NCBI RefSeq assembly: GCF_013122565.1
Contig: NZ_CP053258.1
Strand: one strand, 5' to 3'
DNA: 64,000 nt
Source: Escherichia coli
GTDB lineage: Bacteria; Pseudomonadota; Gammaproteobacteria; Enterobacterales; Enterobacteriaceae
In this document: piece by piece, positions 3,957 to 61,598 of the stretch
Numbering within the stretch: the first letter of the stretch is position 1
How the letters are laid out: each line of letters opens with the position of its first letter
The notes under the pieces: model-generated
Database searches by the model: none
Seen by the model: only the letters and a program-made list of their open reading frames with translations
Told to the model about the DNA's origin: nothing
Made by a program: the position numbers and the translations under genes

Positions 3957-4907
3957 ATGCGTGTGTTACTGGCACCGATGGAGGGAGTGCTTGACTCTCT
4001 GGTGCGTGAATTGCTGACCGAAGTTAACGACTACGATCTGTGCATCACCGAGTTCGTCCGCGTGGTGGATCAACTGCTGCCGGTAAAAGTTTTTCATCGC
4101 ATTTGCCCTGAGCTACAAAACGCCAGCCGGACACCATCCGGTACGCTGGTGCGCGTGCAGTTGTTGGGTCAGTTCCCACAATGGCTGGCAGAGAACGCCT
4201 CCCGTGCGGTGGAATTAGGTTCCTGGGGCGTGGATCTCAATTGCGGCTGCCCGTCGAAAACGGTTAACGGTAGCGGCGGCGGCGCGACGTTACTCAAAGA
4301 TCCTGAACTCATCTACCAGGGTGCAAAAGCGATGCGTGAAGCTGTACCGGCGCATTTGCCCGTCAGCGTGAAAGTGCGTCTGGGCTGGGACAGCGGTGAG
4401 AAGAAATTTGAAATCGCCGATGCGGTTCAACAGGCTGGCGCTACGGAGCTGGTGGTGCATGGGCGGACGAAAGAGCAGGGTTACCGCGCGGAGCATATTG
4501 ACTGGCAGGCGATTGGTGAGATTCGCCAGCGGCTGAATATTCCGGTGATTGCCAACGGTGAAATCTGGGACTGGCAGAGCGCGCAACAATGCATGGCGAT
4601 CAGCGGCTGCGACGCAGTGATGATTGGTCGCGGGGCGCTCAATATTCCCAACCTGAGCCGGGTAGTAAAATATAACGAACCGCGAATGCCGTGGCCGGAG
4701 GTGGTTGCTTTGCTGCAAAAATATACCCGTCTGGAAAAGCAGGGCGATACCGGGTTATATCACGTAGCGCGGATTAAACAGTGGTTGAGTTATTTGCGTA
4801 AAGAATACGCTGAAGCAACAGAATTATTTCAGCATGTTCGGGTGTTGAATAATTCCCCTGATATTGCAAGGGCTATTCAGGCAATTGATATCGATAAGCT
4901 GCGATAA
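3957..4907 (+). CDS. dusC: tRNA-dihydrouridine synthase C, 315 aa
   Basis: Start at ATG 3957 ([13 protein letters not shown]...), Dus-family TIM-barrel motifs (LAPMEGV, catalytic Cys in NCGCP); upstream in-frame extension in ORF track rejected. Confidence 0.9.
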
Positions 4908-5294
4908 TAGTGGAATCGCAGCTTATCAGAGACAATGAATCGCTTATTCAGCTTCATCATCTTGTTGCGCTCCTTTCATGAACTAAGCCATATATTGCCA
5001 CTGGCGCAAGGAGCGCGCAGGGGGAGGACAATCGCCTCCTCCCCCTGCACCCCCGGGCTCTGGCGAACAAAATCGCCGCTGCGCGGTACCTTCAGCTTAT
5101 CCCCTTCGGCTACCGGGTCGGGCGCGAGGTAACGTCCTTGTAAGACGCGCCCTCAGCCCACATCCATGTGGGCTGTCCCGGCCTTCGGGGAACGCTTCAG
5201 CGATTTTGACGCCACCAACACCGGAGCTGTTTGCAAATCAAGTACACAAAATATCTAGTTCCTGACCTGACAACTTATATGCCATATCTGATTT

Positions 5295-5378
5295 TTAAAA
5301 TATCATCTTAAATACGCCAGTCACCACCAGTAGCCCAATCAGGAAAATAATCAATACAGCCCAGAGTATAATTTTCAT
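5295..5378 (-). CDS. yohP: 27-aa small membrane peptide (MKIILWAVLIIFLIGLLVVTGVFKMIF)
   Basis: Short minus-strand ORF below the ORF-track size cutoff, single TM helix; matches my recollection of E. coli small protein YohP between dusC and mdtQ. Not verifiable here. Confidence 0.5.
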   Translation of the reverse strand: MKIILWAVLIIFLIGLLVVTGVFKMIF

Positions 5379-5601
5379 TGGCGTTCCTTTATTTGTGAGT
5401 GCTGAATAAGTATAGGAAAAAACGAAGCCCTTTGCCGTTATCCATAAACGATTAAGATAAATCGGAAGATATCATTCACTTAGTGTATATTTTTCTGGAT
5501 ATGTCGTTTTATTGCTACTGATGTATTGCCACGCGAAACTAAAAAATATATCGCAACACACGGTAATCTCCCCGCACCTTTTCTTACCTGATTATTCCCC
5601 C

Positions 5602-7038
5602 ATGAATCGTGATTCCTTTTATCCAGCCATCGCCTGTTTTCCGCTGTTACTGATGCTGGCCGGATGTGCGCCTATGCATGAAACCCGCCAGGCGTTAAGC
5701 CAGCAAACGCCCGCTGCACAAGTTGACACCGCATTACCCACGGCGCTGAAAAATGGTTGGCCAGACAGCCAATGGTGGCTGGAGTATCACGATAATCAAC
5801 TCACTTCATTAATTAACAATGCACTACAGAACGCACCGGATATGCAGGTGGCTGAACAGCGCATTCAGCTAGCTGAAGCCCAGGCGAAGGCAGTTGCTAC
5901 TCAGGATGGTCCGCAGATCGACTTTTCTGCGGATATGGAGCGGCAAAAAATGTCGGCAGAAGGGCTAATGGGGCCGTTTGCTCTGAACGATCCGGCCGCA
6001 GGTACGACCGGTCCGTGGTACACCAACGGAACTTTTGGCTTAACGGCGGGCTGGCATCTCGATATCTGGGGAAAGAATCGGGCGGAGGTTACTGCCCGCC
6101 TGGGTACGGTTAAAGCACGGGCGGCGGAACGCGAGCAAACCCGCCAATTGCTGGCTGGCAGCGTAGCCCGCCTGTACTGGGAGTGGCAAACCCAGGCGGC
6201 GTTAAACACGGTCTTGCAGCAAATAGAAAAAGAGCAGAACACCATTATCGCGACCGATCGCCAGCTATATCAGAACGGGATTACTTCTTCAGTTGAAGGT
6301 GTGGAAACCGATATTAATGCCAGCAAAACCCGGCAGCAGCTCAACGATGTCGCGGGGAAAATGAAAATTATTGAGGCACGGTTAAGCGCACTTACAAATC
6401 ACCAGACAAAGTCATTGAAGCTTAAACCGGTCGCGTTGCCGAAAGTGGCAAGCCAGCTTCCTGATGAACTGGGGTACTCCTTACTGGCCCGGCGGGCAGA
6501 TTTGCAGGCGGCGCACTGGTACGTTGAGTCATCGTTAAGCACCATTGATGCGGCGAAAGCGGCATTTTATCCTGACATCAACCTGATGGCCTTCCTGCAA
6601 CAGGATGCGTTGCACTTAAGCGATCTGTTCCGTCATTCCGCGCAGCAAATGGGCGTTACGGCAGGCCTGACGCTACCCATTTTCGATAGTGGTCGTCTTA
6701 ACGCAAACCTCGATATCGCAAAAGCCGAAAGCAACTTGTCTATCGCCAGCTACAACAAAGCAGTGGTTGAAGCGGTGAATGACGTGGCGCGGGCAGCCAG
6801 TCAGGTTCAGACACTGGCGGAGAAAAACCAGCATCAGGCGCAAATTGAGCGCGATGCCTTGCGTGTGGTAGGTCTTGCGCAGGCGCGCTTTAACGCGGGC
6901 ATCATTGCTGGTTCCCGTGTCAGCGAAGCCAGAATCCCGGCGCTGCGTGAGCGGGCCAATGGCCTGTTATTGCAAGGGCAGTGGCTGGATGCCTCCATTC
7001 AACTCACTGGTGCGTTGGGCGGGGGTTACAAACGCTGA
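5602..7038 (+). CDS. mdtQ: outer-membrane efflux lipoprotein (NodT/OMF family), intact 478-aa reading frame
   Basis: Start at ATG 5602 gives lipoprotein signal MNRDSFYPAIACFPLLLMLAGC (lipobox LAGC); OMF-family coiled-coil/beta-barrel repeats; uninterrupted ORF. Confidence 0.8.
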   Translation: MNRDSFYPAIACFPLLLMLAGCAPMHETRQALSQQTPAAQVDTALPTALKNGWPDSQWWLEYHDNQLTSLINNALQNAPDMQVAEQRIQLAEAQAKAVATQDGPQIDFSADMERQKMSAEGLMGPFALNDPAAGTTGPWYTNGTFGLTAGWHLDIWGKNRAEVTARLGTVKARAAEREQTRQLLAGSVARLYWEWQTQAALNTVLQQIEKEQNTIIATDRQLYQNGITSSVEGVETDINASKTRQQLNDVAGKMKIIEARLSALTNHQTKSLKLKPVALPKVASQLPDELGYSLLARRADLQAAHWYVESSLSTIDAAKAAFYPDINLMAFLQQDALHLSDLFRHSAQQMGVTAGLTLPIFDSGRLNANLDIAKAESNLSIASYNKAVVEAVNDVARAASQVQTLAEKNQHQAQIERDALRVVGLAQARFNAGIIAGSRVSEARIPALRERANGLLLQGQWLDASIQLTGALGGGYKR

Positions 7039-9305: not shown

Positions 9306-9478
9306 AAAGTTCTTTTGCGTTGCATTGCTGGCGTAAATGTCAGCAATGCAGCATTTCCTCACGATTCTCCTTTGACGATCGCACTTTTTGCTCGTTATGA
9401 TGGCGTCGCTAGCCTCAGTAAATCCTTACTCCGGCGGTGCGCAACCCGTGCGCGTGAACCACTATCTGAATGCTCATC

Positions 9479-10414: not shown

Positions 10415-10600
10415 TAGGCAGGATAAGGCGTTTACGCCGCATCCGGCATTCGGAGCACAATGCCTGATGCGATGTTTGCGCATCTTATCAGGCCTACAAA
10501 CGTGACGCGTCCGTAGGCAGGATAAGGCGTTCACGCCGCATCCGGCATCCGGTGCACGCTGGCTGATAAGATGCTTGCGCATCTTATCAGGACTCCATCT
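10415..10600. repeat. cluster of REP (repetitive extragenic palindrome) units / BIME between convergent pbpG and dld
   Basis: Two copies of GTAGGCAGGATAAGGCGTTyACGCCGCATCCGGCA and two of the GCCTGATGCGAyGyTTGCGCATCTTATCAGG-type palindrome seen directly. Confidence 0.75.
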
Positions 10601-17123: not shown

Positions 17124-18042
17124 ATTTAGCCATGTCAGCAAACTGTTCGGCGCACAAAAAGCCGTTAACGATCTCAATCTCAATTTTCAGGAAGGGAGTT
17201 TTTCGGTGCTGATTGGCACATCTGGTTCCGGCAAATCCACCACCCTGAAAATGATTAATCGCCTGGTGGAGCATGACAGCGGAGAGATCCGCTTTGCCGG
17301 AGAAGAAATTCGTTCGCTGCCAGTACTGGAGTTGCGCCGCCGGATGGGCTATGCCATTCAATCTATTGGCCTGTTCCCCCACTGGAGCGTGGCGCAAAAC
17401 ATCGCTACCGTGCCGCAATTGCAAAAATGGTCGCGGGCGCGGATTGACGATCGTATCGACGAATTAATGGCGCTACTGGGGCTGGAGTCAAATTTGCGTG
17501 AGCGTTATCCGCATCAGCTTTCCGGTGGTCAGCAGCAACGTGTGGGAGTGGCGCGCGCACTGGCTGCCGATCCGCAAGTCTTACTGATGGATGAACCCTT
17601 TGGCGCACTGGACCCGGTAACGCGCGGCGCGTTGCAACAAGAGATGACGCGCATTCACCGTTTGCTGGGGCGCACTATTGTGCTGGTCACTCATGATATT
17701 GATGAGGCGCTACGGCTGGCAGAACATCTGGTATTGATGGATCGCGGTGAAGTGGTGCAGCAGGGCAATCCGCTGACGATGCTGACTCGTCCGGCGAATG
17801 ATTTTGTCCGCCAGTTTTTTGGACGTAGTGAACTGGGTGTGCGCCTGCTTTCGTTACGTAGTGTGGCGGATTACGTGCGTCGCGAAGAACGAGCAGAAGG
17901 TGAGGCACTGGCAGAAGAGATGACGCTACGCGATGCGCTCTCTCTGTTTGTCGCGCGGGGATGCGAGGTGCTGCCGGTGGTGAACATGCTGGGCCAGCCT
18001 TGCGGCACGCTGCATTTTCAGGATCTGCTGGTGGAGGCGTAA
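17116..18042 (+). CDS. yehX: ABC transporter ATP-binding protein YehX, 308 aa
   Basis: Walker [13 protein letters not shown] signature LSGGQQQRV, Walker B LLMDEP seen. Confidence 0.9.
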
Positions 18043-30037: not shown

Positions 30038-30120
30038 ATAAAAAAACCTGCTGGTGAGGCAGGTTCTTTTATTTACTACAGTGACGCTAACTTGCTGATT
30101 GTGCAACATTTCGTACCAAC
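30038..30120 (-). ncRNA. orzO: candidate OrzO-like antitoxin sRNA, copy 1
   Basis: Minus-strand -10 (TATAAT, plus 30127..30132) and intrinsic terminator (hairpin 30047..30063 with U-tract); its 5' region contains GCAACATTTCGTACCAAC, which matches zorO-1 5' UTR 30271..30288 at 17/18 positions as a direct repeat, so the RNAs are complementary. Ends are approximate. Confidence 0.4.
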
Positions 30121-30177: not shown

Positions 30178-30358
30178 CCTGCCCGTTGGGAGGTTGTGCC
30201 GGATCGGACCAATTTTAAGTCCTGGCTGCCGGACGGGTGGTGCCGCAGGCGGTGCCCTGATCCGGAGAGCAACGTTTCGTACCAACATACGTAAACCAGT
30301 ATCGACAGGCAGTGTAAGGGTAAGGTGCTGGTGTTGCGCTCCTTAATAAGGAGAGCGG

Positions 30359-30644: not shown

Positions 30645-30729
30645 AAATAAAAGAACCTGCTGGTGAGGCAGGTTCTTTTATTTACTACTTTGATGTTAAG
30701 TTACTGATAGTGCAACATGGCATCTCAAC
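30645..30729 (-). ncRNA. orzO: candidate OrzO-like antitoxin sRNA, copy 2
   Basis: Same architecture as copy 1 (terminator hairpin 30656..30672; -10 at plus 30736..30741); pairing segment TGCAACATGGCATCTCAAC differs from copy 1 and matches the zorO-2 UTR (30881..30899) with 2 mismatches. Confidence 0.35.
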
Positions 30730-61382: not shown

Positions 61383-61477
61383 TTTATTAACGCGATTGTA
61401 AAACTGCCGTTTTTCCTCGTTTACAACGCGTGCGCTGGACATTACCATCCTCCTCTGCGATTTATCATCGCAACCAA

Positions 61478-61598
61478 ACGACTCGGGGTGCCCTTCTGCG
61501 TGAAGGCTGAGAAATACCCGTATCACCTGATCTGGATAATGCCAGCGTAGGGAAGTCACGGACCACCAGGTCATTGCTTCTTCACGTTATGGCAGGAG
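61478..61598 (+). promoter_or_regulatory. TPP riboswitch (thi-box) in the thiM leader
   Basis: Contains GGGGTGCCCTTCTGCGTGAAGGCTGAGAAATACCCGTATCACCTGATCTGGATAATGCCAGCGTAGGGAA, the classic E. coli thiM aptamer, followed by the SD-sequestering platform ahead of ATG 61605. Confidence 0.85.

Follow-up and report, generated by a model that had tools for sequence, protein, structure and literature searches.

A dusC-yohP copy of the Escherichia coli TRIP1/RRS repeat in reverse orientation, and its likeness to TwoAYGGAY RNAs

We analysed a stretch of 64,000 nucleotides from Escherichia coli (assembly GCF_013122565.1, contig NZ_CP053258.1; hereafter the window), and more specifically the region 4908-5294 between dusC and yohP, in which a first-pass annotation made from the sequence alone had noticed GC-rich stems. 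Positions ~4928-5256 are the dusC copy of the E. coli repeat TRIP1, alias RRS-dusC (for replication risk sequence, RRS), which is already known and named. The 222-bp core of this copy is identical to K-12 TRIP1a, located between aqpZ and lysO, at 205/222 positions, and to K-12 TRIP1c, located between dusC and yohP, at 203/220, in both cases without gaps. Its identity to either K-12 copy is thus 92%, and the two K-12 copies match each other at 218 of the 220 positions of the same stretch. Over the full element, identity is 90% to TRIP1a (304 bp) and 88% to TRIP1c (274 bp). The locus is also that of K-12 TRIP1c, in the intergenic region of the dusC-yohP-mdtQ series, and the published K-12 coordinates of TRIP1c (2229122-2229394) agree with the match that we found in the K-12 record. 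We consider it likely that this copy acts by the published DNA-level gap mechanism described below, and that it is a formerly mobile relative of the TwoAYGGAY class of structured elements.

Li et al. (2024) assigned these repeats to TRIP1a, TRIP1b and TRIP1c of Rudd (1999), with TRIP1c downstream of yohI (dusC) and TRIP1b internally deleted (PMC10888264). RRS-lysO and RRS-dusC of the Cox and Goodman laboratories, found ~650 kb on either side of dif, are a 222-bp rediscovery of TRIP1a and TRIP1c (Pham et al. 2023, PMC10287960; Pham et al. 2024, PMC10592627), and the RRS authors themselves equate TRIP1 with RRS (PMC10287960, PMC10592627; Kusi-Appauh et al. 2026, PMC13308219). The element can therefore not be called uncharacterised, as had been suggested: it is a named repeat, studied experimentally since 2023, with published experimental support for activity at the DNA level. 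The search for other copies that had been proposed found a common repeat, with matches to the intergenic region at 17,461 places in 5,425 of the 5,426 complete E. coli genomes (median 3 and maximum 8 per genome), which is one of the outcomes that the first-pass annotation had named as refuting its observation. Of its suggestions only that of a repeat element holds: the idea of a degenerate repeat was correct as to the repeat but not as to its degeneracy, the copy being well conserved. In K-12, the best match away from the locus lies between aqpZ and lysO. A partial copy is found between putP and efeU. In a plasmid-borne putP-efeU segment, a 100-residue 'hypothetical protein' is annotated beside the partial copy. 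In the E. coli RefSeq records, the PGAP annotation has no feature under TRIP1/RRS at any inspected locus.

The repeat is ~330 bp long, non-coding, with 60% G+C, and it is densely self-complementary on both strands. Its conserved core spans ~4961-5236. Outside this core, ~35 nt at the left end and ~20 nt at the right end show weak conservation and turn with it when the orientation changes; the limits of ~4928-5256 rest on weak homology. The G-rich strand, which is here the sense strand of yohP downstream of that gene, carries the G-quadruplex (G4) motif and the TwoAYGGAY resemblance. No second copy of the repeat is present within the window. The features of the locus are as follows.

4928-5256, minus strand (G-rich; G4 and TwoAYGGAY strand): whole TRIP1c/RRS-dusC copy, from blastn, alignments to K-12 TRIP1a, TRIP1c and 19 other Enterobacteriaceae copies, and the literature.
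4998-5219, minus strand: RRS core of 222 bp in the definition of Pham et al., CCACTGGCGC...GACGCCACCAAC, aligned without gaps to K-12.
4967-5016, no strand assigned: 9-bp helix (helix 13 of the consensus fold), GCGCTCCTT at 4967-4975 with AAGGAGCGC at 5008-5016, around an A/T-richer loop.
5017-5048, no strand assigned: perfect 12-bp hairpin, arms GCAGGGGGAGGA at 5017-5028 and TCCTCCCCCTGC at 5037-5048, with the 8-nt loop CAATCGCC at 5029-5036.
5035-5054, minus strand: predicted G4-forming motif, variant GGGGGTGCAGGGGGAGGAGG of the published K-12 motif GGGGGTGCAGGGGGCGGCGG (PMC10592627).
5068-5208, minus strand: long-range outer helix, 5068-5083 with 5193-5208, enclosing a multibranch domain with both GGA hairpins.
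5120-5152, minus strand: GGA hairpin 2, GGGCGCG...CGCGCCC, with ACAAGGACGU at 5141-5132 (K-12 ACAGGGAUGU, Kluyvera ACAUGGAUGU).
5154-5175, minus strand: GGA hairpin 1, CAGCCCACAUGGAUGUGGGCUG, with the loop AUGGAU; second palindrome of the first-pass annotation.
3957-4907, plus strand: dusC (yohI), left flank, co-directional with replication here according to gene calls and GC skew; its stop codon ends at 4907, 110 nt before the first stem.
5295-5378, minus strand: yohP (27 residues), right flank, convergent with dusC and followed by mdtQ (yohG).

Both GC-rich stems of the first-pass annotation are real, and their coordinates were confirmed, except that the first has 12 bp, not 10: the arms CAGGGGGAGG (5018-5027) and CCTCCCCCTG (5038-5047) that had been named lie within the longer stem. 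This stem is the complement of the published G4 motif together with its pairing arm. The second palindrome, GCCCACATCCATGTGGGC (5156-5173), has 10-bp arms, CAGCCCACAT at 5154-5163 and ATGTGGGCTG at 5166-5175; a literature search for the sequence of the palindrome returned no match. The palindromes do lie in the 5000-5200 interval to which the structured element had been assigned, but they are parts of one larger repeat of at least 13 helices that extends past both sides of it. We rejected coding readings of the region, as the 65-codon open reading frame (ORF) at 4935-5132 is not conserved, and neither is a minus-strand ORF starting from the hairpin loop, which stops after 17 codons in both the window and K-12.

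To measure the stems against chance, we determined the longest perfect stem with a loop of 3 to 12 nt in 1000 dinucleotide-preserving shuffles of 4908-5294. A stem of 12 bp was reached in none of them, and one of at least 10 bp in 2/1000. Folded as single-stranded DNA, the segment 4955-5240 has a predicted energy of -78 kcal/mol for the minus strand (z = -7.0) and -71.7 kcal/mol for the plus strand (z = -5.8), and none of 200 shuffles folded as well as the real sequence for either strand. We then aligned 20 Enterobacteriaceae copies (mean column identity 90%), and obtained for the G-rich strand a consensus fold of 77 pairs in 13 helices. In 7 of these 77 pairs both sides have changed, compared with a mean of 2.9 in shuffles, none of 500 of which reached 7, and with 0 to 2 in slid controls. 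Because pairs change on both sides above both kinds of controls, formation of the hairpins seems to be maintained by selection, in addition to the G-runs. The compensated pairs include two of the 12-bp hairpin (pairs 207-222 and 210-219), which are A-U in the window and C-G in K-12: the K-12-type arms are GCAGGGGGCGGC and GCCGCCCCCTGC, and in the window two positions have changed on both arms with pairing kept. The outer helix is extended further in the consensus fold (helices 2 to 5), with compensatory pairs 44-154, 47-151 and 56-141. This evidence from compensatory changes is strand-neutral. That a hairpin overlapping the G4 motif is kept by such changes is of interest for work on RRS.

Stable hairpins between convergent genes could also serve as an insulator or terminator, stopping or stabilizing the transcripts of both dusC and yohP. 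All five E. coli TRIP1 loci lie 38 to 96 bp past a stop codon, and the structure is very stable on both strands, which would suit this explanation. Nevertheless, no stem is followed by a U-tract, we found no terminator-like site with a U-tract in 4700-5600 where 1.2 are expected in shuffles, and at aqpZ a separate canonical terminator precedes the element. Furthermore, the conserved loop sequences and the multibranch architecture would be left unaccounted for, and we regard this role as very improbable. The first-pass annotation had correctly noted that the stems do not form a simple intrinsic terminator. Its suggestion of an attenuator found no support, as the element lies between convergent genes, downstream of both.

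It had also judged, rightly, that the element is not a canonical repetitive extragenic palindromic (REP) sequence: with the Rfam family naRNA4 as a proxy, there was no match in 4600-5700 even at E = 10, whereas REPs elsewhere in the window were detected, at 10417-10593. Like REPs and the bacterial interspersed mosaic elements (BIMEs) that they form, TRIP1 is GC-rich, intergenic, palindromic, located 3' of genes and implicated in chromosome topology. In contrast, it has no sequence relation to them, with no naRNA4 match at 4900-5300, it is ten times longer and multibranched, and it is present in 1 to 8 copies rather than in hundreds.

The window copy shares with K-12 TRIP1c its locus, its gap-free core, its helices and a G4 motif with identical G-runs, but its orientation is reversed, relative to dusC as well as to the replication fork. 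The G-rich strand is the sense strand of dusC in K-12 and that of yohP in the window. Since the GC skew of the window plus strand is positive (+0.035 overall, and positive in 13 of 16 bins) and dusC is on that strand, replichore reasoning has the fork moving from left to right, with the minus strand, which carries the G4 motif, as the leading-strand template. The window copy thus does not have the 'native' orientation of K-12, in which the G4 strand is the template of the lagging strand. This term describes the K-12 configuration and not a defining trait of the repeat. At the dusC locus of the 5,426 complete genomes, the region is of the window type in 1,999 (37%) and of the K-12 type in 3,309 (61%), and K-12 therefore has only one of two common natural alleles. 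Li et al. counted 2952 forward and 2789 reverse TRIP1c copies (PMC10888264), in agreement with these counts.

The lysO locus is polymorphic as well. Among the individual genomes sampled there, K-12 shares its orientation with LH85-a, and ZH48 shares the opposite one with E69. In UTI89, of a well-known pathogen lineage, the G-rich strand is on the leading-strand template at both loci, provided that synteny is as in K-12, an assumption backed by gene order and by the local GC skew. Internally deleted lysO copies occur in strains of the B2 lineage: in UTI89 (record L091, 5960-6090) and NU14 the two GGA hairpins are gone along with an arm of the 12-bp hairpin, and ST131 has a different internal deletion, of 82 bp, between short direct repeats.

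Other differences accompany the change of orientation. The core of the window copy carries 17 substitutions in 222 positions relative to K-12. In the G4 motif, the G-runs are unchanged and two C to A changes have occurred between them. The second GGA loop is AAGGAC in the window copy and AGGGAU in K-12, and the sequences between the element and both gene ends differ. The dusC product ends in ...IDIDKLR in the window (4890-4907) and in ...IDIEKL in K-12. As the last dusC codons differ between the orientation alleles, the polymorphic segment extends into the 3' end of the gene. An 8% divergence between the copies exceeds what is expected between E. coli core genomes. Together, 99% identity within K-12 and 92% to the window suggest that copies evolve in concert within a genome and that the allele classes are old or introgressed.

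We rejected a simple inversion in place, since the alleles differ in their outer flanks and in the C-terminus of dusC, and we found neither target duplications nor boundary inverted repeats at the flipped alleles. Recombination between TRIP1a and TRIP1c inverts the intervening 1.3-Mb segment (Li et al., PMC10888264). By our reasoning this cannot turn a copy relative to both of its own flanks, and we discarded it as the cause of the flip.

The activity of RRS has been measured on the K-12 sequence, not on the window allele. In vitro, DNA polymerases I, II and IV are blocked by the G-rich RRS strand, which in vivo also slows Pol III. When this strand is the template for lagging-strand synthesis, gaps of up to ~2 kb covered by RecA and SSB arise, both at the native sites and at any insertion site (PMC10592627, PMC10287960). 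Deletion of both K-12 copies succeeds only alongside a 200-kb amplification, or when extra or inverted copies are supplied, and deleting or inverting both alters supercoiling genome-wide (PMC10287960, PMC10592627). In engineered strains with inverted RRS, the RecA and SSB peaks are absent in vivo (PMC10592627). In a single-molecule assay, a gap of ~650 nt arises at nearly every replisome encounter in the native orientation, and one of ~325 nt at ~66% of encounters in the reverse orientation (RRS papers: PMC10287960, PMC10592627, PMC13308219). Since the C-rich strand folds too, the reverse-orientation gaps still arise in the lagging strand (same papers). The authors have proposed that the gaps are topological relief valves that flank the Ter domain (PMC10287960, PMC10592627).

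Applied to this element, the mechanism would run as follows. As the replisome unwinds the repeat, the exposed lagging-strand template would fold, into hairpins and a G4 if it is the G-rich strand, and the folded template would block the lagging-strand polymerase. This would leave a post-replication gap of a few hundred to ~2000 nt, occupied by SSB and RecA. In the inverted window copy, the G-rich minus strand would be the leading-strand template and the C-rich strand that of the lagging strand. By analogy with K-12, the published DNA-level action is the most likely mode for the element, and gap triggering would be weaker in the window strain than in the K-12 orientation because the element is inverted. 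The one other replication-gap trigger named by the RRS authors is the pilE G4 of Neisseria gonorrhoeae (PMC10287960, PMC10592627, PMC13308219), which similarly has a G-rich strand whose folding in replication reportedly triggers a gap. In contrast with the pilE G4, a short, canonical three-tetrad structure that depends on a small RNA, the window motif is irregular, with two long runs, and is embedded in a 330-bp hairpin-rich element.

Several observations weigh against such an activity of the window copy. All activity data come from K-12, from which the window allele differs at 17/222 core positions in addition to being inverted, and the lack of a detectable in vivo gap peak with inverted RRS means that activity in the window strain may be weak or absent. 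The inverted dusC allele is present in about 37% of complete genomes, and UTI89 has both copies reversed, one of them with an internal deletion, which fits poorly with a strict need for the K-12 configuration. No canonical three-tetrad G4 is possible in the element, which has only two runs of at least three Gs, nor is there one in the related families, and the G4 motif overlaps the competing 12-bp GC hairpin. Lastly, a gap function centred on the G4 does not explain why the GGA hairpins are conserved, why variation on one strand is biased towards G.U, or why there are relatives in Clostridia. The reversed alleles, together with UTI89 in which one of the two reversed copies is gutted, constitute a natural test of the relief-valve hypothesis.

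The relatives came to light in an Rfam scan of 4600-5700 with E values up to 10. The minus strand at 5070-5209 matched TwoAYGGAY (RF01731; Weinberg et al. 2010) with 26.2 bits and E = 0.16, below the gathering threshold of 43 bits, and no other family was detected in this segment beyond noise from miRNA and snoRNA models. The comparison with RNA families that the first-pass annotation had called for thus produced a resemblance that is sub-threshold for this copy, in a structure that is a named repeat and not a new RNA. The K-12 copies also score below the threshold (30.6 and 30.9 bits). In contrast with the window copy, two Kluyvera TRIP1 homologues, which align full-length to E. coli TRIP1 at 81 to 85% identity, exceed it, with 54.2 bits (E = 4e-6) and 44.6 bits. 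The TwoAYGGAY plan is an outer helix around two adjacent hairpins with GGA loops, and the element has the same plan: the enclosing stem is provided by 5068-5083 with 5193-5208 (helices 2 to 4, with compensatory pairs), and loop 1, AUGGAU, fits AYGGAY, while loop 2, AAGGAC, has A where Y is required. The window copy differs in its extra 3' domain, made up of the 12-bp GC hairpin and the 9-bp helix, which has no counterpart in the Rfam model. A further difference is that activity at the DNA level is documented for TRIP1/RRS and for no TwoAYGGAY member.

We also scanned one genome per species with the GCCCACATCCATGTGGGC 18-mer. Only Escherichia, Kluyvera, Pseudocitrobacter and enterobacterial metagenome-assembled genomes (MAGs) yielded full TRIP1 copies. 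The hairpin itself is also part of other repeated elements, in Edaphovirga cremea (at least 11 copies), several Shewanella species, a Thiotrichaceae MAG (4 copies) and Lachnospiraceae MAGs. None of the 20 Enterobacteriaceae copies varies in GGA hairpin 1, and the Lachnospiraceae, Shewanella, Thiotrichaceae and Edaphovirga elements have the identical 18-mer. The Lachnospiraceae loci with this hairpin are bona fide TwoAYGGAY RNAs (72 to 79 bits); their first hairpin, GCCCACAUGGAUGUGGGC, is identical to that of the element, and they share with it 25 to 27 nt at 96 to 100% identity, one of them 27/27. What the families have in common is the outer helix, the invariant hairpin, and another hairpin with a variable stem and a loop that keeps to A/C-N-GGA-Y. 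The neighbours of the Lachnospiraceae loci are housekeeping genes (uxaA-like, secA, rny, recX, recA), and we saw no mobile-element genes beside these loci.

A link between TRIP1/RRS and TwoAYGGAY is absent from the literature that we found mentioning TwoAYGGAY and from the 2024 RRS paper, which mentions neither TwoAYGGAY, CsrA, Rfam nor hairpins (PMC10592627). Judged by sequence and predicted structure, it is a modest new family link for an otherwise known repeat, and it joins a chromosome-structure element of E. coli to a proposed CsrA-binding RNA class of gut Clostridia. We tentatively propose, as a possibility that we would not favour, that TRIP1/RRS is the enterobacterial branch of a widespread TwoAYGGAY family whose ancestral selected core is the pair of GGA hairpins on the G-rich strand, and not the G4. 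If so, the family might act as RNA, for instance by binding CsrA, with replication gaps as a side effect. Alternatively, the TwoAYGGAY 'RNAs' of many phyla might be foldable DNA elements that program replication gaps.

An RNA-level function would suppose that the transcribed G-rich strand, by read-through from yohP or as its 3' untranslated region here and in the dusC 3' region in K-12, folds as a TwoAYGGAY RNA whose GGA hairpins bind a CsrA dimer, so as to act as a sponge or as a CsrA-dependent stability element. The resemblance to RF01731 on the minus strand, the supra-threshold Kluyvera homologues and the identity shared with the Lachnospiraceae RNAs are consistent with this scenario, and so is the retention of the GGA loops in hairpin 2 between families whose stems are wholly different. 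TwoAYGGAY RNAs have been proposed as CsrA binders in the RMfam paper, as a prediction. We identified candidate CsrA sites on the minus strand, ACAUGGAUGU at 5169-5160 and ACAAGGACGU at 5141-5132, both A(N)GGA loops and within reach of one dimer. The consensus obtained for CsrA by systematic evolution of ligands by exponential enrichment (SELEX) is reportedly RUACARGGAUGU, from work by Dubey in 2005. The GGA loops of the element (ACAUGGAUGU, ACAAGGACGU and, in K-12, ACAGGGAUGU) fit this consensus. The ~22 nt between the two best GGA sites suits a single CsrA dimer.

The strand evidence is suggestive and points to the G-rich strand. Its predicted RNA minimum free energy is lower by 7 to 31 kcal/mol in 20/20 copies. 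Where a helix is predicted for both strands, one-sided changes read on the G-rich strand as G.U pairs at 5 sites and as A.C at 1, an asymmetry that is not significant, and the rest of the G.U/A.C asymmetry between strands is partly built into the structure prediction. All variants of the 9-bp helix 4967-4975/5008-5016 are G.U on the minus strand. In the long outer helix, two G.U pairs are invariant in 20/20 copies and two more are nearly fixed (19/20 and 15/20). G.T wobbles are possible in folded DNA too.

Against an RNA function stand the sub-threshold score of the window copy and its second loop, which violates the AYGGAY rule. The 5:1 strand asymmetry falls short of significance, as said. 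A scan of 4700-5600 found no sigma-70 consensus promoter in or beside the element and no intrinsic terminator consensus, and the copies have no common promoter, their flanks varying by locus and allele. Nor did we find transcript evidence for the small RNA that the first-pass annotation had suggested. Potts et al. (2017), in their integrated CsrA table, mark dusC and ybjE (lysO) 'No' in all four evidence columns and not significant (NS) overall. Both GGA hairpins have been deleted from the lysO copy in B2 lineages, and CsrA binding by TwoAYGGAY RNAs is itself only proposed. As in the CsrA-sequestering small RNAs CsrB, CsrC, McaS and RsmX/Y/Z, the element has GGA motifs in hairpin loops. Unlike them, it has two optimal sites rather than many, its stems are far more conserved, and it has no known promoter or terminator and no evidence from crosslinking and immunoprecipitation (CLIP). 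On balance, we regard an RNA-level function as unlikely.

We now return to the history of the repeat, which under our preferred DNA-level reading would be an enterobacterial relative of the TwoAYGGAY class of structured elements and would itself have been mobile over evolutionary time. In related species the repeat occupies different loci: xthA, recD-argA, pntB-uspE, mdlB-glnK, tsgA-nirB, alx-sstT and copA. Its copies in Kluyvera, Pseudocitrobacter and Edaphovirga have beside them, on the opposite strand, a second unit of two hairpins that has diverged; a short spacer separates the pair, and each unit points away from it. Some Edaphovirga copies are cut exactly 5' of the GCCCACATCCATGTGGGC hairpin, after which a new copy begins. 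From its sequence and distribution, the element looks like a formerly mobile, non-coding structured element. No transposase partner was found, and no convincing terminal inverted repeats or target-site duplication at the element ends. Among 40 sampled E. coli records, none had an empty site at aqpZ-lysO, and only forward, reverse and internally deleted alleles were present there.

Some further details of the relatives were recorded. In Kluyvera and Pseudocitrobacter, the second unit lies 70 to 100 bp from the TRIP1 copy on the other strand (record L071, 4055-4260; record L013, 2170-2380); it has the loops AUGGAU and CAGGAC, a score of 49.2 bits on the RF01731 core and its own terminal GC hairpin. 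Edaphovirga cremea harbours at least 11 near-identical units of ~800 bp, in each of which an AT-rich spacer of ~130 bp lies between two diverged TwoAYGGAY-like arms facing outward. A copy in a Shewanella species (record L077, ~110 nt before position 499) has a 52-nt insertion exactly inside the second GGA loop (CAG^GAUG).

The element might be no more than a selfish relic, that is, a non-autonomous structured element resembling a miniature inverted-repeat transposable element (MITE), with no function selected in E. coli and with replication effects as a by-product of its foldability. Its loci differ between genera, E. coli genomes have 1 to 8 copies, and its relatives are multi-copy in Edaphovirga cremea (at least 11), the Thiotrichaceae MAG (4) and several Shewanella. 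Nested or truncated copies, one copy with an insertion in a hairpin loop, the presence of both orientations at one locus, and the internal deletions in TRIP1b, ST131 and NU14/UTI89 likewise fit a relic. However, we found neither terminal inverted repeats nor a target-site duplication nor an empty site, and a partner transposase is not known. The E. coli copies are fixed at five loci, and the two K-12 copies are 99% identical. Moreover, the compensatory changes indicate ongoing selection on the hairpins, and a clean double deletion was not obtained in K-12. We therefore find it rather doubtful that the element is merely selfish. Both this explanation and RNA-level binding of CsrA are compatible with activity at the DNA level. 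As to formal classes, we did not assign the repeat to MITEs or to elements derived from insertion sequences (IS), as we found no convincing terminal inverted repeats or target-site duplication, and no empty site in the records sampled at lysO. An IS200/IS605-type palindrome-associated transposable element (PATE) was rejected because the two end-proximal hairpins are unrelated to each other.

Other features of the window were noted. The gene mdtQ (yohG; 5602-7038, plus strand) is an intact ORF of 478 codons, whereas it is annotated as a pseudogene in K-12 MG1655. Rfam matches above gathering scores include a Peptidase-S11 RNA motif (9394-9474), the two naRNA4 (REP/BIME) units already mentioned (10417-10593) and a thiamine pyrophosphate (TPP) riboswitch (61474-61570), all on the plus strand. 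On the minus strand, two OrzO-P type I antitoxin RNAs at 30040-30113 and 30649-30722 (88.8 and 90.2 bits, above the Rfam threshold), ~600 bp apart, correspond to a tandem zor-orz toxin-antitoxin pair, and an exact 13-nt repeat at 30332 and 30941 fits a duplication.

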